A stretch of DNA of 64,000 bases from contig JAKFCY010000002.1 of assembly GCA_036676395.1 (NCBI GenBank), forward strand, positions 1,536,001 through 1,600,000, given 5' to 3'. Below the pieces are notes generated by a model. That model worked only from the letters and a program-made list of their open reading frames with translations. It did no database searches and was not told where the DNA came from. Shown here one piece after another: positions 53,333 to 63,735 of the stretch; positions within the stretch are counted from its first letter, which is position 1, and each line of letters begins with the position of its first letter. Source of the DNA: Bdellovibrio sp. (lineage in GTDB: Bacteria > Bdellovibrionota > Bdellovibrionia > Bdellovibrionales > Bdellovibrionaceae). The position numbers were made by a program, and so were the translations under genes.

Positions 53333-55101
53333 GGGTTTTGTTCCTTATAGACCGGTTCAGGTCGTTTTGATTTTGTGTTCGTTTTTAAAAATTCTTCTAA
53401 ACTAATAAATTTATAACCAAGTTTTTTGATCTCGCGCAGAATGTATTCAAGTTCTGCCGGATCACCCGGAAACTCACCGCGGCCACCATCTTCGTAAGTT
53501 GTTAACAAAAAGGGATGGTAGAAAAACGAAGCCCAGACATCACGTAAGACTAAATTACGTTTTGCATCGATGATGATTTCTTCTTTAGAACGAGGAACCA
53601 CAACATGGGCGTTCACAAAAGGCTGTGAATTGCCTAAATTTTCTGGAATCAATCTTTGACCATGAACATCGCCGTAAATTTCATATGGAAACATCTGCCC
53701 GCTCCAGCGTTCAGATTCATAAACGACTTCTAAGTTTTTAAAATATTCAGTACGTAAATTATAACCGTTAGTTAGCGCACTTAAAAACTGAACGTCTTTA
53801 TTTTCATTTGGTGTCGAGAAACCTTTAACCGAATGATTATAATAAATCACGCGCCCAACATTCCAGGTAAATACATTAGCAAAAATAATATAATCTAGAG
53901 GGCTTGCCTGATAGTGAGGGGTCAGCCACATTTGCGGGGTGATGCCTGTTTTTTGCAGGGTGTAGAAGCCATCTTCTAAACGATCAACAACATATTTAAC
54001 ACTGTCTTCTGCGATCGGACGGTTATTCACAGCATCGAAAAATTCGAAATCGCTGCCGCTTACGCCATCGTGCGGGTTTTTTTGTGCATTGTACTGGTGG
54101 GTAACACCATGCCAGATAAAAAAAGCCTGATCACGTTTTACTTCTTCGATGAAATTCATGAATGGCACTTTACGATCCATTGTGATGAATTCACCCTGTG
54201 GATCTGTTTCACCACGGTGTAACGGGTCAAAATAAATTGGAATCAGCGAAATATGAATCGGCACTTTTTCGTTTTTTAAAACATTCATTGTTTTATAAAG
54301 CTCGCCCAAAGGCATTAACGGATGAACATCTTCAATTCGAACCAATGCATACTTGCCGTTATGACGGGGTTTTTCATCTAAAATATCGAATAACAGATCA
54401 GCAAATACAAAATAGCGGTCAGCTTCATGCATAAAACTAAATGGCACATCAGCCACATAAAAATGATTTTTAGCCTGAAGCGCATAAGGCAGAATTTCTT
54501 TAGTCACATTGTGTTCTGCATGCGCTAAAATCTGAGATTTCTTGGTGTCAGTAGCTAACAAAGCTGCTTGTTCAAACGGAGCTAAAAAAATCGACCGATC
54601 AGTTTTGCTCCAGTCGCCGTACTTAAAAAACACTTCACCTTTATAAAGTACATTTTTAAAATAACTTGGTCGGCCTGTTGAGTCTAATTTTTCGCGGTTT
54701 AGCGTTGTTAAATGTGAATACTTATAGCCAAAAATTTCTTCAAAATTTGCACCTAATTGCCAAATGCTATAACCCAGCCAGGCCACACGTTTTTTTGTGG
54801 CCGTAAAATCTTGTAAAAAATCAGCCGGAATCTGATTGTTAAAATAACTGCCGATATAAAAACTGGCATGACATGTTTCGATATCGCCCTTTTTATACAT
54901 TTCAATCGGGCTTACGATTTGTTGATATTTCGGAAAATGACCCAGAATATTTTGCAATAATGTAGCGTAGGTTTTTCCCATCCAATAATTAGGTTCTTGT
55001 GAGCGATCAAAATAAACGTTCACGCAAGGAGTAGCGACGGCTTTGGCCTGAACCTGCCAGCTAGATAATACTAACATCACAGAAATAATAAAAATCTTCA
55101 C
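53329..55101 (-). CDS. DUF2334 polysaccharide deacetylase-like secreted protein
   Basis: LVRIEDVHP, WHGVTHQY, TPHYQAS, IPENLG, ASFFYHPF. Confidence 0.78.
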   Translation of the reverse strand: MKIFIISVMLVLSSWQVQAKAVATPCVNVYFDRSQEPNYWMGKTYATLLQNILGHFPKYQQIVSPIEMYKKGDIETCHASFYIGSYFNNQIPADFLQDFTATKKRVAWLGYSIWQLGANFEEIFGYKYSHLTTLNREKLDSTGRPSYFKNVLYKGEVFFKYGDWSKTDRSIFLAPFEQAALLATDTKKSQILAHAEHNVTKEILPYALQAKNHFYVADVPFSFMHEADRYFVFADLLFDILDEKPRHNGKYALVRIEDVHPLMPLGELYKTMNVLKNEKVPIHISLIPIYFDPLHRGETDPQGEFITMDRKVPFMNFIEEVKRDQAFFIWHGVTHQYNAQKNPHDGVSGSDFEFFDAVNNRPIAEDSVKYVVDRLEDGFYTLQKTGITPQMWLTPHYQASPLDYIIFANVFTWNVGRVIYYNHSVKGFSTPNENKDVQFLSALTNGYNLRTEYFKNLEVVYESERWSGQMFPYEIYGDVHGQRLIPENLGNSQPFVNAHVVVPRSKEEIIIDAKRNLVLRDVWASFFYHPFLLTTYEDGGRGEFPGDPAELEYILREIKKLGYKFISLEEFLKTNTKSKRPEPVYKEQNP

Positions 55102-56483
55102 GGTTGCACCTGAGCCTTAATATCGAGACCAAAATGTTCTGGCATACGATGTTCTGTTTTAATCCAAACAGGTCTTTGACCTGTTTTTTTACTTTCACTA
55201 AATTGTTGGTAGGCCTTCAATGCAGCGCCCACGTTGATCACGTTAGCCACCAGCCAACGCAGCGGCACTAACAGCACATGCTGTCTGGCGTTTGTTAAAG
55301 CGACAGCACGCATTCTTTGCCCCATACGCAAAACCATATTGAACATGTTCAGCGCCAGTAACGATTGAAATAAACCATGCTGTAATGCACTTTGGCCTAA
55401 CTGCAGCTGATTTAAGACAACAAAGCCAATCAGCAATAAAACTGACAATACAATAAGAAGGCTATTATAAGGGCTACGGCGATCACGCCACATAAAGTAT
55501 TTATCGACTAGGCTACCCTGCCATTGCAGGTTTTCTGTACCTTGAAAAGCAATACCCAAAGTCCAGCGAGATTTCTGGCGCATAGATGCTGACAGTGCAT
55601 CAGGAAAATATTCGCGGGTGGCAATAAATTCAGTCTGGCCGTTTTCTTTTTCGTACTGCACGCAGGCAAATTTAGATTTAAAACCCAATTTTTTAGCCAT
55701 CATTCCTAAGTGATAATCTTCGGTCAAAGTGTCTTCTTTTAAAAAACAACCATCTTGGGCCTGCATCATGCCTAACATCAGATTACGGCTTAACAAAGTA
55801 CCCACGCCGGCTGAAGGAATAGCTGCACCCATGGCTTCGCGAACCAGTAAATCTTTTGTGTGAGCTTCGGCAAATTCATCAATATAAATGCCACCGACAA
55901 ATGAAGATTTTGGAACATCAAATGAAAATACCGGAATTTGCACAAAGTCTGCATCATGGCTGACTTCGTTTAATAGTGAAAGTGAATGCGGGTGCAAAAC
56001 ATCTTCAGAATCTTGCATTAAAAATAAATCAAACTTTTTTCCGAGTTTAATTTCGTAGCTAAAAATCTTGCGAGCCACTTCATTTAACATCTGGCCTTTA
56101 GAGGTTGGTCCTTCGTGCGAATTTAAGACCACCTGAACTTGTTTTGGGTAAGCAGCTTGAAGATTTTGTGCTGCAACAACAGTGCCTATATCATTGGGGT
56201 ATACACCCAAGAAAAAAACATAGTTCTTATATTCAAGGCCACGTAGATTACCCCGAATCATGGGCGTGATAATTTCAGCTTCTTTCCAGTTAGCAATTAA
56301 AATAGCAATTTGTTTTTCAGGGGTTCTTTTGATCTGCGCAATGTAATCGACCGTCACTCGTTGGGGCTTTAAGCCACGCATTAATGCCTGTAGATCAATA
56401 AACATATCATCCACAGCAAATACCAGTGCGCCAATAACAGCAATACATACCAACGCTACAAATAACATTTCAAAATTACCCAT
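55098..56483 (-). CDS. nfrB: NfrB-like GT2 polysaccharide synthase (GT and TM part only)
   Basis: GVYPND, GPTSK, DSED, YIDEFAEAH.KD, PSAGVG, LTEDY, TREYFP, RQKSRW, WRDRR, W.KT.H..P. Confidence 0.82.
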   Translation of the reverse strand: MGNFEMLFVALVCIAVIGALVFAVDDMFIDLQALMRGLKPQRVTVDYIAQIKRTPEKQIAILIANWKEAEIITPMIRGNLRGLEYKNYVFFLGVYPNDIGTVVAAQNLQAAYPKQVQVVLNSHEGPTSKGQMLNEVARKIFSYEIKLGKKFDLFLMQDSEDVLHPHSLSLLNEVSHDADFVQIPVFSFDVPKSSFVGGIYIDEFAEAHTKDLLVREAMGAAIPSAGVGTLLSRNLMLGMMQAQDGCFLKEDTLTEDYHLGMMAKKLGFKSKFACVQYEKENGQTEFIATREYFPDALSASMRQKSRWTLGIAFQGTENLQWQGSLVDKYFMWRDRRSPYNSLLIVLSVLLLIGFVVLNQLQLGQSALQHGLFQSLLALNMFNMVLRMGQRMRAVALTNARQHVLLVPLRWLVANVINVGAALKAYQQFSESKKTGQRPVWIKTEHRMPEHFGLDIKAQVQP

Positions 56484-57208
56484 TAAAATTCTCCGCCGAC
56501 AACAAAGAGAACTTCTTCATGCGCACGTTCATGTTTTACAAAACTTTCATAAACTAAAATTTGCGCTGACCACAAATTAAATAGGTAAATACCGCGCACT
56601 CCGACACGCGCTTGCTCGGTGTCGCGCCCAAGATCTGCTTTGGGGCTGCGACGTGTGTAAATTTCTACATACGGATCTATGATAACTGCCGTTTGCTCAA
56701 GGCGATAACGTAGCCCTTGCTTAAACCAAGCCGATGTTACGGGGTTGTGATGAAACAAAGGCAGCGCGATGGCTTCAATATAAAATTCAGAAAACAGCGG
56801 AGCATTTTTAAACCGGTATTCAAAAATTTCACCCAAGAACAGACCATAACGACTTCTTCTTTCAGTGCGGTATTCGGCCAAGGCTGTTAGAGATTTCCAT
56901 AAAACAATGCGACCACCAATAACCGCCATAGTGCGATTTTTCGAATAAAGATCGTCATCATCGCCTGAAATTTTATCTTGGCGCTGCAAAACTGCACCGA
57001 TGTAGAAAACATTTCTTTCGGCCTGAAAAAGTTTGACGCGCAGTTGGGTTTCAGACAGCAATCCGTATTGCGGAACAAAAGTTGTTTCAGAGTAAATTTC
57101 AGCGACCGTATTTGCATTCGCAGGCATGCTGACGATATAAGTTGCAGCCATAAATACGCAAATTCGTAAAAACAATAAATATAAAAACGAACTTCGTTGG
57201 CTGCGCAT
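56483..57208 (-). CDS. Putative outer-membrane beta-barrel (YaiO/NfrA-like exporter)
   Basis: Signal peptide, alternating amphipathic strands, terminal Phe (VVGGEF); TAATG coupling to nfrB; start uncertain. Confidence 0.5.
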   Translation of the reverse strand: MRSQRSSFLYLLFLRICVFMAATYIVSMPANANTVAEIYSETTFVPQYGLLSETQLRVKLFQAERNVFYIGAVLQRQDKISGDDDDLYSKNRTMAVIGGRIVLWKSLTALAEYRTERRSRYGLFLGEIFEYRFKNAPLFSEFYIEAIALPLFHHNPVTSAWFKQGLRYRLEQTAVIIDPYVEIYTRRSPKADLGRDTEQARVGVRGIYLFNLWSAQILVYESFVKHERAHEEVLFVVGGEF

Positions 57209-57359
57209 ATAAGAGCGACGATAACTACAGGAAAATAATGTCATCAGCAATGCCATAAATATGATAAGTAAAAAGCTACATAAGTAGTCTTATATTGGCA
57301 CTAGCTTGGCGCACCCAAACTTAAACAAATAGCCTTTTGTTTTAAAGACAACTCAGCAT

Positions 57360-58236: not shown

Positions 58237-58268
58237 ATTGTAAACCGTTGGGTATACAACATGGTCAA
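58237..58268 (-). promoter_or_regulatory. MerR-type promoter/operator with long spacer
   Basis: TTGACC-N20-TACAAT with imperfect dyad ACC(AT)GTTG...CAACGGT across the spacer. Confidence 0.7.
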
Positions 58269-58277
58269 GGGGTTAAT

Positions 58278-58652
58278 ATGTTAATCGGAGAATTAGTCAA
58301 AAAAACGCAGCTAAGCAAAGAGACCATACGTCATTATGAAGACATTGGCTTAATTCGCGGTATTAAAACTCAAACAAATGGCTATAAAAACTATCCTGAG
58401 CGACTGGTAGAGGACCTGAAACTGATTGGCCTTGCGAAAGATTTAGGTTTCACCTTAAAAGAAATCAAGTCACTTCTAAGCCTGCTGCAAAAAGGACAAC
58501 TTGGCAGAAGCAATCTGAACCAAGTGATTCAAAAAAAGATAAGCGAGATTGATCAGAAAATAAGTGCTCTTAATCAGCTTAAAGAAAGATTAAACCAAGA
58601 ACTTGCCCGAACATGTTCGCCGCAAGAAACTTTGAAAATTATGACTACTTAG
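58278..58652 (+). CDS. MerR family transcriptional regulator
   Basis: MLIGEL.K..., TIRHYE.IGL, NGYKNY, AKDLGFTLKEIK. Confidence 0.93.
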   Translation: MLIGELVKKTQLSKETIRHYEDIGLIRGIKTQTNGYKNYPERLVEDLKLIGLAKDLGFTLKEIKSLLSLLQKGQLGRSNLNQVIQKKISEIDQKISALNQLKERLNQELARTCSPQETLKIMTT

Positions 58653-59304
58653 CACTGCCGCGGGCAATACCCAGGCGGTCTTCATACGCATTAAGAACTT
58701 TTACGAACGCCGGCCGCGCTTCGCAATTAAGACGGTACTTCTCAAGATTCGGGTACTTACCCAAAATCTCTGTTTTACGAATTTCACGCAGCACGCACGT
58801 AAGAATAATATCAGCTACAGTGAAATCAGTTCCCGTAATAAATGGCTGCGCTTTTAACATTTGATCGATCGTCGGAAAAAAGCGTTCAAGAATTTCAACA
58901 TGCCAAGAACGCAGTTTACCGTGGTGGCTTGCTTCACCCTGAAGATCAGCAAAAAAAACCGGTAGCGCAAATGGCTCGATGTTATTAAGAGCCGTAATTA
59001 ACCAGCGATAAACTTGTGCGCGCCCCTGCAGGTCAGCAGGAATCAATTTTTGCGATTTTTCGGCTAGGTAAAGAAGAATCGCCCCCGACTCCGTTAGAAT
59101 ATATCCATTATCATCGATGACCGGAACTTGTTTGAACGGAGAAACCACATCAAACGAAAATTCATCTTGAAGACCATTCGGCCCGCAATCAAGCCCGATA
59201 GTCTCATAGGCGATGCTACACTCTTCAAGTGCCCACATCACACGTATATCGCGCGTATAGCCCCATAGAAATGGCGGCAGCGACTTGAAGACGTAAACTT
59301 TCAC
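58645..59304 (-). CDS. Glutathione S-transferase family protein
   Basis: RVMWALEE, PFKQVP, LTESGAILLYLAE, FTVADI, ARPAF. Confidence 0.93.
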   Translation of the reverse strand: MKVYVFKSLPPFLWGYTRDIRVMWALEECSIAYETIGLDCGPNGLQDEFSFDVVSPFKQVPVIDDNGYILTESGAILLYLAEKSQKLIPADLQGRAQVYRWLITALNNIEPFALPVFFADLQGEASHHGKLRSWHVEILERFFPTIDQMLKAQPFITGTDFTVADIILTCVLREIRKTEILGKYPNLEKYRLNCEARPAFVKVLNAYEDRLGIARGSAK

Positions 59305-60069: not shown

Positions 60070-60097
60070 TGTAAATAAATTGTTCTTTATATTTACA
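60070..60097. promoter_or_regulatory. Inverted-repeat operator candidate
   Basis: TGTAAATA-N12-TATTTACA upstream of 60155. Confidence 0.4.
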
Positions 60098-60154
60098 TAA
60101 ATACCCGTTTTAAATAACCTAAACGGGCGAATCAAACGCTAAAGGGGTTATGGC

Positions 60155-60904
60155 ATGTTTAATGAGACCGTGGATCTACAGCTCGTACTTTGTCCCGTTC
60201 GCGAACCAGAATCGAAATATATTGAATTATATAACAAAATCTATAAGTGCTGGAATAGCGTATGGACTTCGGCTTATACCGAAGTGAATTATCAGTCAGA
60301 CCACGAATCTTTGAAGTCTGATAGCTTTACCCGTCAGGATTTTGTGGCGGCTATTTTTCATAAACAGGAGTGCATTGCTTTTATTTTATTTCGTCAGGTG
60401 GATGCGAATTTAATATCTACTAAAGATGATTCGTTTTTTGCCCAATGGAGTGAAATTCATCTTAAGTCTGTTGCAAAAATAGGTCAGCAGTTGTTGATTT
60501 GTGGAAACTTGGGAATTCATCCGACGTTTCGTCAAAAGACTCTGGGAGTTTCTCTAAAAGAAATTATGGGAGGCTTAATTTCAGAAATCACATTACAATC
60601 AAATGTCAATGCAACCCTTGCGACCCCCCGCCGCGATCGTAACGTACACGGCGCCGCCTATCAATGGGGAGCTGCTCCGATAGCCCAGGATATTTCTTGG
60701 GGCTGCGGAATTCAAATCGACTTAATATCTTTTCATAAGGCAAATCTATTAAAACACCGCAATCACGCATTACGTCCGCTCATAGATAAGCTATGGCAAA
60801 ATAAAATTGTTGTAGAAAACAAAGCTCAAGAGACGCTTCAACAATTCAAGCACACTAGCCCTTATAGTCTGCAAAATTTAAAGCCAAACAAAAAGACAGG
60901 TTAA
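60155..60904 (+). CDS. Divergent GNAT-fold acyltransferase (LuxI/FeeM-like architecture)
   Basis: Y..W..VW helix, DSF, AAIF...CIAFILF strand, LGIHPTFRQKTLG (motif A-like), NVHGAAYQWGA (motif B-like). Confidence 0.5.
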   Translation: MFNETVDLQLVLCPVREPESKYIELYNKIYKCWNSVWTSAYTEVNYQSDHESLKSDSFTRQDFVAAIFHKQECIAFILFRQVDANLISTKDDSFFAQWSEIHLKSVAKIGQQLLICGNLGIHPTFRQKTLGVSLKEIMGGLISEITLQSNVNATLATPRRDRNVHGAAYQWGAAPIAQDISWGCGIQIDLISFHKANLLKHRNHALRPLIDKLWQNKIVVENKAQETLQQFKHTSPYSLQNLKPNKKTG

Positions 60905-60911
60905 AAATTTT

Positions 60912-61847
60912 GTGACAAAGATTACTTATAAACATATTCGAAAAAGCCTAAACTTTGATTTTCAGCCACAATTTTTTATAAGACAGGTTGGAACTGACTT
61001 ACTTTTACTTGCAACGATGTTTGCGTTGTTTCAAACAACATTTGCCGTGATTAATGTTTTTCTAATTCCGGCGTTTATGTTTCGCCAATTTTCGATTTTA
61101 CATGAAGCCGTGCACGGCTTAGCACATCCAAATTCTAAAATTAATGATGCGCTTGGCGTAATTTCTGGTGCTTTTTGCCTAACACCTTATGCCACCTGGA
61201 AAGCAGCTCATCTAAAACACCACTACTGGACAGGCAATCTTAATCAGGATCCAACTTTTGCCATTTTGAAACAATATGAACAATTCTCGGCACTTAAAAA
61301 AAATCTTATCGAATTTACTTGGCGTAAAGGCCTTCCGTTACTTGGTTTTTTACAGCATTTAGGTTTTTGGGTTTTTACATTTAAAAATACGGCGACGTTT
61401 AAAAATGTTTTTAGCTCAGTGATGGTTATAGCTTTATATGCTGCAGTTTTGTCTCAAACCAATCTAGCAAACGCAGTTATTAGTATTATTGGAATCTGCC
61501 TTTATTTTCGTGCTTATGAAGAAATGATCGTGCCCCAACATGTAGGAATGTATTCAGATGATGAAATAGAACACCACCCATCAGCCTGGGATCAGCAAGA
61601 GATTACCCGTTCATGGCCTTTAGCCTCGGGATTAGAAAGATATGTCGTCTTAAATATGAATTATCATACCGAACATCATCTATTTCCAGACCTGCCATGG
61701 CACCAACTGGATAATGCCCATCAACTTTTGTTGCAAGAAAATGAACCCTTAAATTTGATTTCGTTAAAATGGATGAGCGAACAACGCCAAAGACCTTTTG
61801 CCGAAGTTATTATCCCGATACCTAGCCGCAAGAAAAATGCAGCTTAA
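60912..61847 (+). CDS. Membrane fatty acid desaturase
   Basis: His boxes HEAVH, HLKHH, YHTEHH; LFPDLPWHQL; TM segments. Confidence 0.9.
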   Translation: MTKITYKHIRKSLNFDFQPQFFIRQVGTDLLLLATMFALFQTTFAVINVFLIPAFMFRQFSILHEAVHGLAHPNSKINDALGVISGAFCLTPYATWKAAHLKHHYWTGNLNQDPTFAILKQYEQFSALKKNLIEFTWRKGLPLLGFLQHLGFWVFTFKNTATFKNVFSSVMVIALYAAVLSQTNLANAVISIIGICLYFRAYEEMIVPQHVGMYSDDEIEHHPSAWDQQEITRSWPLASGLERYVVLNMNYHTEHHLFPDLPWHQLDNAHQLLLQENEPLNLISLKWMSEQRQRPFAEVIIPIPSRKKNAA

Positions 61848-61849
61848 TA

Positions 61850-62590
61850 CTAAATCATAGCCAGCTTATCCACTTCGGCATCGTAACCTAATACTGTGCC
61901 ACGTAATGAGAATACAAAGCCTTTAACTTCGTTAGAGCCTTCTTCAAAAAGTGGACAGGCAAAACCTGGTTCTACAAGAACTGATGAACATTTAAAACCG
62001 ATAGAATCATCGTTATAAATTTCTTTAAGAATATGACGAGATGAATTAATTTGGGTTGCTGTTTTCATTCTACCCTCCATCATCTGCTGAGCCGCTTCTA
62101 TTAAAGCGTTCATCACAAAAGAAGGTCGCTCCCAAAGCAGGTACCATTCAAGAGTCAGTAAATCTAAAAGCGAATAAGATGAAATTTTAAAGAAATTAAA
62201 CGTTCTAAAAAGCTGAATGCTTTCTGAACTGTATATTTCAATAACGTCATCTTTTTGCACCTTATTCCAAAACTCAGTATCGCGCAGCTCTAAGCCATAC
62301 ATTTTGATGGCTGGCTCGATATAACAGCGTTCACGGTGTTCTGACGAAGGCTGTTCAACTTGTGTAGACATTAATACAACGCTTAAAGCATTTTGCAGCT
62401 GTTTAGCTATGAATTCTTTTTTTTCAAGAGGCATAGTTCTGAAAGCGGCTATAGATTTTGGTGAATATGGTCTGCAAGCATAACCTTGAAGTCTGACAAT
62501 TTGGGCTAATCTTTGTAGGTCTGCTATCAACGACAGTTCTAAGGGAGTAAGGCGCGTGTCTAATGCAAGATTCGAAGCATCAATACTCAT
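61850..62590 (-). CDS. Stand-alone PAS/PAC-like sensor protein
   Basis: DVIEIYSSESIQLFRTFNFFKISSYSLLDLL resembles a PAS core; ACPLFEEGSNEVKGFVF resembles PAC. Confidence 0.55.
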   Translation of the reverse strand: MSIDASNLALDTRLTPLELSLIADLQRLAQIVRLQGYACRPYSPKSIAAFRTMPLEKKEFIAKQLQNALSVVLMSTQVEQPSSEHRERCYIEPAIKMYGLELRDTEFWNKVQKDDVIEIYSSESIQLFRTFNFFKISSYSLLDLLTLEWYLLWERPSFVMNALIEAAQQMMEGRMKTATQINSSRHILKEIYNDDSIGFKCSSVLVEPGFACPLFEEGSNEVKGFVFSLRGTVLGYDAEVDKLAMI

Positions 62591-62868
62591 ACTGACCTTT
62601 TAACCGACTTAGATTTCTTATAAACTTTGGCGGTGATTATATTTTTTGAATCTTCAACCATGACCTTAACCAGCTTGTCGCGGCTTAGATTCAGCACGTC
62701 AATGAGTTTTTCAAAACAGTGATTTGGGGGGGCGCATAGACCGCGCTCCCAGTTAGAGATAAATTGCACGTGAACATTGCCTAGCATATCTGCGAGTTCA
62801 CTTTGGGTTAAATCTAACCCGAGACGTTTTTGCTTCAAATATTGGCCTAAATTTAAAAATTCTGACAT
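62587..62868 (-). CDS. XRE family HTH transcriptional regulator
   Basis: LGQYLKQKR...LTQSELA..LG..QFISNWERG...P; AAGG RBS; ATGA overlap with PAS gene. Confidence 0.92.
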   Translation of the reverse strand: MSEFLNLGQYLKQKRLGLDLTQSELADMLGNVHVQFISNWERGLCAPPNHCFEKLIDVLNLSRDKLVKVMVEDSKNIITAKVYKKSKSVKRSV

Positions 62869-63021
62869 ACTTACCTTATACAATAATTTTTTATTTAGTT
62901 CAATAGGGTTAGTAATTAATACCGTAACCAGTCAACCTGTCAAATTTCGATACACTTTTAGGCTATGACTGCTCCTATAAACGAATCTGGCGCGGCATAT
63001 TCTTCGCTAACTTGAACAGCT

Positions 63022-63735
63022 ATGAAATTAAAATTCCAAATTCTAGCTATAATCCTTTTAGCGACCCAAGTGGCCGCAGCTTATCAGGAAGTGCCGTGGA
63101 CTTGGCAAAAAAGTGACTGTAAAGATTGTGGAATTAATTTTAGGATGTCGACGCAAGATTATAAAGATAATCCTAAAATGGTCGAATTTTTAAAAGCCCT
63201 ATCAACTGAAAAGCACAACATCTTAAAACTCTATAATTCAGATCCCCAAGAATATAATTTACTAGCGCATATGGCGGTTGGAATTTTAGGAAACGAATCT
63301 ACTTACTTTAATAGCATGCGATACAAAGTTAAAAGAAATACGCAGCTACCTATTCAATGGGCCAAGGATCTTAAAGCCTGGTTTGGTGACTACGAAGCAT
63401 CACCTAATAGCAAAGGCCCGACTCAAATTAAAAAAGTGCCTGACCGTATTGAACAGTTTTATAATATTACAGAAAATAACTTATGGCATCCTAAATATGC
63501 TGCTGTTTCTACGATGGCTTTTTTGATCGAAGCCTTAGTTGAACTAAAACAACGCGCGAAAAATAATAATTTAGAAATGATAACGCCAGAAACTTATGTT
63601 GATTATTTACCGTATCTTTACTTTGGTGGCAGCAAAAAGCTTGTGAATCGCACGGCAACACCCGATACAAATATTTATGTTAAAAACATGAAAAAGAACA
63701 TGAAAAAAGTCTCGGTTTTAGAGATCATTCCTTAA
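63022..63735 (+). CDS. Secreted lysozyme/lytic transglycosylase-like protein
   Basis: Signal peptide; GILGNES (catalytic E-S), SKGPTQIK (GxxQ), NLWHPKYAA. Confidence 0.55.
   Translation: MKLKFQILAIILLATQVAAAYQEVPWTWQKSDCKDCGINFRMSTQDYKDNPKMVEFLKALSTEKHNILKLYNSDPQEYNLLAHMAVGILGNESTYFNSMRYKVKRNTQLPIQWAKDLKAWFGDYEASPNSKGPTQIKKVPDRIEQFYNITENNLWHPKYAAVSTMAFLIEALVELKQRAKNNNLEMITPETYVDYLPYLYFGGSKKLVNRTATPDTNIYVKNMKKNMKKVSVLEIIP

Follow-up and report, generated by a model that had tools for sequence, protein, structure and literature searches.

What is the function of a locus in which two two-gene units on opposite strands converge until only 2 bp (positions 61848-61849) separate their stop codons? 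The locus lies in a stretch of 64,000 nucleotides (nt) from Bdellovibrio sp. (assembly GCA_036676395.1, contig JAKFCY010000002.1, positions 1,536,001 to 1,600,000 of the forward strand), which as a whole is called the window here; the coordinates of its features are collected in Table 1. On the plus strand, the gene for a candidate synthase of 249 amino acids (aa), designated SYN, is followed after 7 nt (60905-60911) by a gene for a desaturase-family protein. On the minus strand, the gene for an XRE-type helix-turn-helix (HTH) protein precedes that for a PAS-like protein of 246 aa. At 62587-62590, TCAT on the plus strand corresponds to ATGA on the opposite one, where the stop codon of the HTH gene overlaps the start codon of the PAS-like gene. 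A start of the HTH protein at the ATG at 62868 (93 aa) matches the length of the shorter homologs with which it was aligned (89-94 aa). A preliminary description of this DNA proposed that the locus makes an unsaturated N-acyl signal and senses it through a split regulator. Its four structural observations concern the open reading frames (ORFs), the spacing of 7 nt on the plus strand, the 2 bp between the stops, and the ATGA overlap. All were confirmed from the ORF list and the sequence, and the arrangement is more than chance because it recurs in other genomes. The answer favored here, which is considered about as probable as its opposite, is that the locus is a phylum-wide acyl-signal synthase/receptor cassette that makes and senses a small lipophilic signal of the acyl type.

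An even sample of 401 Bdellovibrionota genomes was searched for the SYN and the PAS-like families. The SYN family was present in 118 of these genomes and the PAS-like family in 133; 97 genomes had both, 21 had SYN only, 36 had the PAS-like family only, and 247 had neither, the related genomes among them not being independent observations. Around 60 SYN matches, picked from 132 and mostly among the higher-scoring ones, about 12.6 kb was fetched and the genes were mapped using hidden Markov models (HMMs), clustering, and Pfam. In total, 62 cassettes were compared, the window included. A PAS-like gene was located within 2.6 kb of SYN in 49 of them, a histidine kinase gene was found in the absence of a PAS gene in 11, and two had neither, so that a candidate receptor gene of one kind or the other lies near SYN in 60/62 cassettes. 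The candidate synthase and its putative receptor are genetically linked and co-inherited. The expectation that homologs would co-occur across Bdellovibrionota was borne out by the 97 genomes with both families. A related-locus search starting from the alignment of SYN homologs, which reaches close relatives only, returned eight loci, all of them from Bdellovibrionota.

The identity of SYN was approached through both its sequence and its predicted structure. Searches of Pfam and NCBIfam gave no family match, searches of PDB sequences with SYN profiles gave chance matches only, and in the ESM Atlas it falls in clusters named "hypothetical protein" only. The AlphaFold model, for which an alignment of 25 homologs was made, is confident (predicted local distance difference test, pLDDT, 85.9) and has the mixed alpha/beta fold of the GCN5-related N-acyltransferases (GNAT). 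The top Foldseek match of this model is the N-acyl-homoserine lactone (AHL) synthase EsaI (E 4e-6), followed by the N-acyl amino acid synthase FeeM (PDB 2g0b, E 1.6e-5) and then by RpaI, LasI, and BjaI; in the structural comparison, 175-190 residues could be aligned with AHL synthases. A LuxI/FeeM/GNAT fold is what had been predicted for the 249-aa protein. In VIA scoring, ordinary GNAT N-acetyltransferases acting on amines or antibiotics equaled the AHL synthases when compared with SYN, and the placement of SYN as "LuxI-like" inside the GNAT fold is suggestive, not decisive. SYN is best described as a candidate GNAT-fold acyltransferase of an undescribed family, with a modeled structure like those of LuxI and FeeM. 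The family is without a name in all sources consulted; with clustering at the 50% level, it amounts to 893 clusters for E ≤0.001 and to 700 for E ≤1e-10. Residues W33, W37, and R159 are invariant among 123 diverse members, and D56, F58, D92, S93, F95, W98, R126, G172, and W214 are conserved as well. The pyrophosphate-binding loop of GNAT motif A, with the consensus Q/R-x-x-G-x-G/A, is situated between beta4 and alpha3. The sequence of the beta4-alpha3 loop in SYN is R126-QKTL-G131-V-S133, which exceeds this consensus by one residue; its R126 is nearly invariant in the family.

Is SYN then a member of the LuxI family? The LuxI model PF00765 did not match SYN at E ≤1, nor any of the 123 family members at E ≤0.01. 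A search of the whole genome with PF00765 was also empty, a result that carries little weight because 14 control genomes were equally silent. Six annotated AHL synthases taken from plasmid records were used as a LuxI reference alignment, in which R23, F29, E44, D46, D49, R70, E101, and R104 (TraI numbering) are invariant. Using hhalign, a probability of 1.2% (E 0.046) was obtained for the SYN-family profile against these six proteins and of 0.3% against TraI on its own. The alignment with the six proteins is collinear but insignificant, and the mapping drawn from it is tentative: LuxI E101 and R104 correspond to I115 and N118 of SYN, F29 to the family-invariant W37, and D46 to the nearly invariant D56. 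The absence of the canonical LuxI Arg and Glu residues from SYN, as first remarked in the preliminary description, agrees with this mapping. By sequence, membership of the LuxI family is ruled out by the missing PF00765 match, the hhalign probability of 1.2%, and the positions of E101 and R104, which are not kept in the tentative mapping. Membership of the FeeM family was rejected in the same way: neither PF13444 nor NCBIfam nor any other acyltransferase model matched SYN, and no Pfam acyltransferase model matched any of the 123 members. The PF13444 model works in this organism, as it detects one other gene in the genome (5.9e-27). Since the LuxI catalytic residues are missing, the acyl acceptor of SYN is probably not S-adenosylmethionine (SAM).

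The second partner, the 246-aa protein, is equally silent in sequence searches. None of the Pfam PAS-clan HMMs matched it, the sole Pfam match being DUF4479 at an E value of 0.028, below the cut-off; NCBIfam gave no match, and neither did PDB sequences when searched with a 28-member profile. Its AlphaFold model, based on an alignment of 28 sequences, is confident (pLDDT 88.1) and displays the five-stranded antiparallel sheet with flanking helices of a PAS fold. When the Foldseek matches were re-examined, the best 50 rows were all PAS or LOV domains, and the same was true of the best 50 rows of a Foldseek-independent search of 48,161 chains. VqmA and RpfR were among the fold matches. The LuxR-type autoinducer-binding fold was not among the best 50 rows, a distant kinship being still possible. 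The PAS fold is assigned to residues of about 105-246, in a divergent form; residues 1-100 or so are modeled as a helical N-terminus. The two fold searches agree with the earlier expectation of a PAS fold for the protein encoded at 61850-62590, which the predicted model makes a candidate receptor with a very divergent PAS fold.

The HTH protein matches PF01381 (HTH_3) with 38.1 bits (cut-off 23, E 1.6e-9). Of the 49 PAS cassettes, at least 36 have an XRE-type HTH gene adjoining the PAS-like gene; 30 of these were recognized by similarity to the window HTH and six more by Pfam. HTH proteins adjoining PAS genes across the phylum share the signature QF(I/V)SNWERG..PP, which marks them as a dedicated partner family. 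In another cassette from the window's own genus (L080), an uninterrupted ORF of 361 aa fuses the two: residues 5-76 are 35% identical to the window HTH (E 1e-10) and residues 139-269 are 27% identical to the PAS-like protein (E 5e-9). This fusion is the best support for the view that the two window proteins act as one regulator. No fused PAS forms of at least 435 aa were found, which is weak evidence, and a prediction of the PAS-HTH complex scored 0.00 in a run without controls and counts neither way. The idea of a split one-component regulator made of a PAS receptor and an XRE partner fits the L080 fusion, but it does not describe the 11/62 cassettes that use a histidine kinase instead. The kinases adjoining SYN in the PAS-less cassettes have a length of about 465 aa and are homologous to each other. 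For ten of the 12 that were examined, 3-7 transmembrane (TM) segments are predicted in the N-terminal part, with no recognizable sensor domain and no periplasmic domain. A kinase gene is present within 3 kb in 11/13 PAS-less cassettes versus 15/48 PAS cassettes, and no similarity of the kinase sensor regions to the PAS family was detected (best E 0.07).

The gene following SYN encodes, as judged from sequence, a membrane-type diiron enzyme of the PF00487 desaturase family (E 1.2e-30, 107.6 bits with a cut-off of 29.7) and fills the "tailoring" slot, a variable part of the cassette. Its translation of 311 aa contains the three His boxes typical of the note's description, HEAVH, HLKHH, and HTEHH. 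The best NCBIfam score was 55 bits versus a cut-off of 380 bits, with weak matches to GntB arginine hydroxylase and Delta5 DesA, and there was no match among PDB sequences. A redox "tailoring" gene of any kind is located near SYN in 51/62 cassettes: a heme-oxygenase-like enzyme (PF14518) only in 30, a desaturase only in 15, both in three, and an acyl-CoA dehydrogenase in three, two of which also have PF14518. In the SYN tree, desaturase and PF14518 alternate between the sister cassettes L073 and L075 and between L041 and L042, both pairs with 100% support. The membrane PF00487 and soluble PF14518 families are unrelated, yet they occupy the same position in sister cassettes. The desaturase is not a core component of the system, since a PF14518 enzyme replaces it in the same slot. 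The desaturase of the proposed "unsaturated N-acyl signal" is real, but the enzyme is found in only 18/62 cassettes and is exchanged for PF14518 elsewhere; as it is no fixed part, an unsaturated N-acyl product is only one possible chemistry. SYN is fused to PF14518 in one cassette (L063) and in 2/123 family representatives, and to an FAD_binding_4 domain in another; these fusions tie the redox enzyme to the SYN pathway.

Some genomes carry several cassettes. The window's own genome has a second, diverged one on a different contig (L068), of which the HTH is 63% identical to that of the window. Four cassettes, two of them in tandem, were found in another genome (G140). The tandem pair (L065) consists of two complete cassettes (SYN, PF14518, PAS, and HTH) about 5 kb apart and represents a recent duplication of the whole unit; the two copies are each other's closest relatives in both the SYN and the receptor tree. 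Most well-supported pairs of one tree are found again in the other, L064 and L070 being an exception. When tailoring types were placed on the receptor tree, seven changes were needed for the desaturase versus 12.2 in shuffles and 10 for the heme-oxygenase-like enzyme versus 16.4, and none of 500 shuffles gave values as low. That receptor and tailoring enzyme co-diversify is suggestive only, because relatives share labels.

The region upstream of SYN contains an inverted repeat whose right arm overlaps the predicted -35 hexamer of a candidate promoter. The promoter was read by eye, a consensus scan having remained silent. In the closest ortholog locus (L071), the arms GTAAATA and TATTTAC of the repeat are kept while the spacer has diverged, and TTTACA, TAACCT, and the 17-nt spacing between them are conserved. 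Within the 3.4-Mb genome, a single copy of the exact 7+7 repeat with N12 was found, where a rough estimate gives about 0.1 occurrences by chance. Across the cassettes, the best perfect arms upstream have a mean length of 6.4 nt versus 6.18 nt in controls (one-sided p 0.004); arms of at least 7 nt were present in 25/55 regions versus 79/297 controls, and arms of at least 8 nt in 8/55 versus 42/297. No operator half-site shared across cassettes was found, and the relaxed form TAAATA-N10-16-TATTTA was not enriched on contig C2 of the genome (12 occurrences versus 7-13 in shuffles). The repeat may be an operator for the XRE/PAS regulator, a candidate for which the evidence across cassettes is weak.

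Taken together, these observations are consistent with a synthase/receptor circuit of the following kind. SYN, of which the fold is established by modeling, would transfer an acyl group from acyl-CoA or acyl-acyl carrier protein to an amine acceptor that is probably not SAM, a chemistry proposed because the closest structural matches, the AHL synthases and FeeM, do likewise. An O2-dependent diiron enzyme would then set the identity of the signal by altering either the acyl chain or the acceptor; in the window this would be the membrane desaturase, in most relatives the heme-oxygenase-like enzyme, which is soluble, and occasionally an acyl-CoA dehydrogenase. The PAS-fold protein would bind the product and, together with the ATGA-coupled XRE HTH protein, would work as a two-protein transcription factor; the partnership has support, and the ligand is a proposed one. 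This factor might bind the inverted repeat over the -35 sequence of the SYN promoter and thus exert feedback control. Where a lineage lacks the PAS/HTH pair, sensing would fall to the polytopic membrane histidine kinase beside SYN.

Some findings temper the signaling interpretation. The PAS-like family is wider than the cassette, with up to six paralogs in some genomes. In two relatives, a single paralog is part of a PAS-SYN-PF14518 cassette, and the five others of each genome lie beside unrelated genes, for example those for NifU/cysteine desulfurase, an HD domain protein, an HNH nuclease, or an Omp85 protein; only one of the five has an HTH partner. The non-cassette paralogs may be "solo" receptors, or the PAS-like family may be one of general sensors. 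In addition, a regulator beside its operon and an operator at the promoter fit equally well with a locally regulated metabolite that is not a signal, such as an antibiotic of the FeeM type, the PAS/HTH pair or the kinase merely switching the pathway on in response to a precursor, product, or environmental cue. This explanation is thought unlikely, though it deserves to be taken seriously. FeeM, one of the best fold matches, originates from a cluster making N-acyl amino acid antibiotics, as far as the PDB title and a quoted reference go; variable redox tailoring is typical of natural-product clusters, and the hosts are predators. The conserved unit is, however, minimal, consisting of a synthase, one redox enzyme, and a receptor, and genes for transport, resistance, carrier proteins, or additional biosynthetic steps are not conserved in the 62 neighborhoods. 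Receptor type and phylogeny follow the enzyme that would define the chemistry, and the parallel cassettes and extra "solo" receptors per genome resemble signaling families more than antibiotic clusters.

The remodeling of membrane aminolipids is a less probable alternative and is regarded as doubtful. SYN would in that case be an N-acyltransferase like OlsB or GlsB, the desaturase or hydroxylase would modify the lipid, and O2, redox, or membrane state would be the cue for the PAS protein or the multi-TM kinase. The desaturase is indeed a membrane PF00487 enzyme with a weak match to Delta5 DesA, the fold of SYN is common to enzymes of the FeeM/OlsB type, PAS domains often sense O2 or redox (as stated in the titles of fold matches), and the multi-TM kinases bring to mind the membrane-sensing DesK, which controls a desaturase. 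A second (O-)acyltransferase does not accompany SYN in the 62 neighborhoods, however, and a separate PF13444 gene of the OlsB/FeeM type is present elsewhere in the genome. The patchy distribution over 118/401 genomes, with 2-4 divergent cassettes in some, is unlike that of a housekeeping lipid pathway, and the soluble PF14518 enzyme takes the place of the membrane desaturase between sisters.

It is quite improbable that the locus serves to sense and modify an exogenous compound, by N-acylation and oxidation of a prey-derived amine, signal, or xenobiotic, with induction through the PAS/HTH pair or the kinase. The VIA scores of ordinary amine and antibiotic N-acetyltransferases, a layout of sensor plus modifying enzymes that is common in detoxification, and the genes for a probably exported hydrolase of the metallo-β-lactamase (MBL) fold, a MerR regulator, and a glutathione S-transferase (GST) just upstream would agree with such a role. 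Conservation of the cassette does not extend to these upstream genes, however; Foldseek puts long-chain acyl synthases first, and the fusions and the co-variation of receptor and tailoring enzyme point to an endogenous product. To read the locus as a toxin-antitoxin pair of GNAT and HTH proteins, or as an anti-phage defense module, is strongly disfavored: the GNAT toxin structure 7byy is among the Foldseek matches of SYN (E 1e-4) and the HTH is weakly similar to antitoxin and RmrA-type HTH models, but the HTH gene is coupled to the PAS gene on the strand opposite to SYN, PADLOC gave generic HTH similarity only and no match for the other three proteins, and a 249-aa SYN coupled to a desaturase, with a conserved diiron partner, is unlike GNAT toxin pairs.

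How does an acyl-signal cassette of this kind compare with the systems already described? The LuxI/LuxR systems (EsaI, LasI, TofI, BjaI, and RpaI) are similar in several respects. SYN has their GNAT fold, with these enzymes closest by Foldseek; the genes for synthase and receptor lie side by side, in many cases convergently; there are several cassettes and extra "solo" receptors per genome; and the palindrome overlaps the predicted -35 sequence of the synthase promoter. In contrast to LuxR-type receptors, those of the cassette are a PAS protein with a separate XRE HTH, or a kinase, and the cassette includes a diiron redox enzyme and a synthase without PF00765. SYN also differs from the N-acyl amino acid synthases of the FeeM type (PF13444, which includes OlsB-type enzymes) in having no PF13444 match. 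A dedicated PAS/XRE receptor is not known as a partner of FeeM-type clusters. In the case of CqsS, LqsS, LuxN, and AgrC, the layout is that of a polytopic kinase next to a signal synthase. In 11/62 cassettes, SYN adjoins a kinase, mostly a polytopic one, which recalls CqsA/CqsS, LqsA/LqsS, LuxM/LuxN, and AgrC-type systems when architecture only is compared; the synthase of the cassette is of another family. A precedent for a diiron enzyme that defines a signal is provided by the pvf cluster, in which, according to the part of the source consulted, the nonheme diiron oxygenase PvfB is integral to autoinducer biosynthesis (PMC10194917). The scaffold enzyme of pvf is, however, a nonribosomal peptide synthetase and not of the GNAT fold, and PvfB is an N-oxygenase of another family.

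The preliminary description did not recognize the architecture as a described one. It is not without precedent, because VqmA and RpfR, the latter responding to the Burkholderia diffusible signal factor (BDSF), are known PAS-domain quorum-sensing receptors; VqmA belongs to the VqmA/3,5-dimethylpyrazin-2-ol (DPO) system of Vibrio. The logic of a synthase with its cognate receptor is familiar, and what is new are the synthase and receptor families and the built-in, swappable diiron enzyme. In the portion consulted of a bioRxiv survey of 82 genomes, no acyl-HSL synthases were predicted in Bdellovibrionota, and the presence of quorum-sensing regulators in these predators was left open. The literature on Bdellovibrionota signaling and on heme-oxygenase-like enzymes, in the parts that were accessible, contained no description of the cassette; supplements could list the genes under other names. 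The wider claim, that Bdellovibrionota carry an unrecognized phylum-wide signaling family with a new synthase of the LuxI/FeeM fold, a swappable diiron enzyme, and a PAS plus XRE or polytopic-kinase receptor, possibly with several orthogonal channels and "solo" receptors per genome, is put forward tentatively and is somewhat more probably wrong than right. If the claim is true, the few bacterial signaling chemistries would gain a new family of synthases as well as a new type of receptor. It would also offer a handle on the coordination of predators during attack or exit, or on signaling tied to oxygen, and the diverged synthase/receptor pairs with their swappable tailoring enzymes would be a natural set of orthogonal signaling parts. 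Two results stand under the alternatives as well, namely a large uncharacterized GNAT-fold family with a conserved diiron partner and the exchange, between sister cassettes, of a membrane desaturase for a soluble enzyme of the heme-oxygenase-like type at the same position.

Table 1 Features of the window and of related loci. Positions without a locus name refer to the window
Feature	Position	Strand	Remarks
461-aa membrane protein and overlapping 257-aa ORF	55098-57256	-	
MBL-fold hydrolase, 302 aa	57360-58268	-	PF00753, 4.8e-17; hydrophobic N-terminus resembling an export signal
MerR-family regulator	58248-58652	+	Divergent from the MBL hydrolase gene, overlap of about 20 nt
GST	58645-59304	-	About 850 nt upstream of SYN
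SCO4226-like nickel-responsive protein, 108 aa	59599-59925	-	PF14026, 1.6e-23
Inverted repeat TGTAAATA-N12-TATTTACA	60070-60097		Perfect 8-nt arms, upstream of SYN
Candidate promoter	60092-60120	+	-35 TTTACA, 17-nt spacer, -10 TAACCT
Second inverted repeat CCCGTTT-N10-AAACGGG	60104-60127		Between promoter and start codon; partly conserved in L071
SYN, candidate synthase gene	60155-60904	+	249 aa, ATG start
Desaturase-family gene	60912-61847	+	311 aa, GTG start
PAS-like gene, receptor candidate	61850-62590	-	246 aa
XRE HTH gene	62587-62868	-	93 aa with ATG 62868 as start, 98 aa with TTG 62883
Upstream region of the HTH-PAS operon	62884-63021	-	Conserved block CTAAATAA...TTATT..TATA directly preceding the start codon (alignment with L071); no strong inverted repeat found
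237-aa ORF	63022-63735	+	Signal-peptide-like N-terminus, no Pfam match; divergent from the HTH-PAS operon
Other, diverged cassette of the window's genome (L068)	G000:C3:13752-26390		Hybrid PAS histidine kinase, PF14518, SYN of 244 aa, then converging PAS-like protein of 269 aa and HTH of 93 aa
Only PF13444 match of the genome (L091)	G000:C2:744175-744459		284-aa frame, far from the window; probably an aminolipid N-acyltransferase, judged from sequence
Tandem cassettes (L065)	G140:C11:30898-43539		
SYN fused to FAD_binding_4 domain	L033:4354-6666		770 aa
Radical-SAM protein	L034:7383-8501		Adjoins the PAS gene; seen once
FAD-dependent oxidoreductase/halogenase-like protein	L077:3700-5085		FAD oxidoreductase neighbor seen once
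GST adjoining SYN paralog	L112:4205-4873		

Some neighbors of the cassette deserve mention. The MBL-fold hydrolase is encoded 2 kb from the cassette, and the AHL lactonases share this fold; it is conceivable that the enzyme degrades the signal. Its gene is not conserved beside the cassette in other genomes. Another GST gene directly adjoins a receptor-less SYN paralog in a distant relative, which is possibly a coincidence. The gene for the nickel-responsive protein is divergent from SYN, and the two have a common upstream region of 229 nt.

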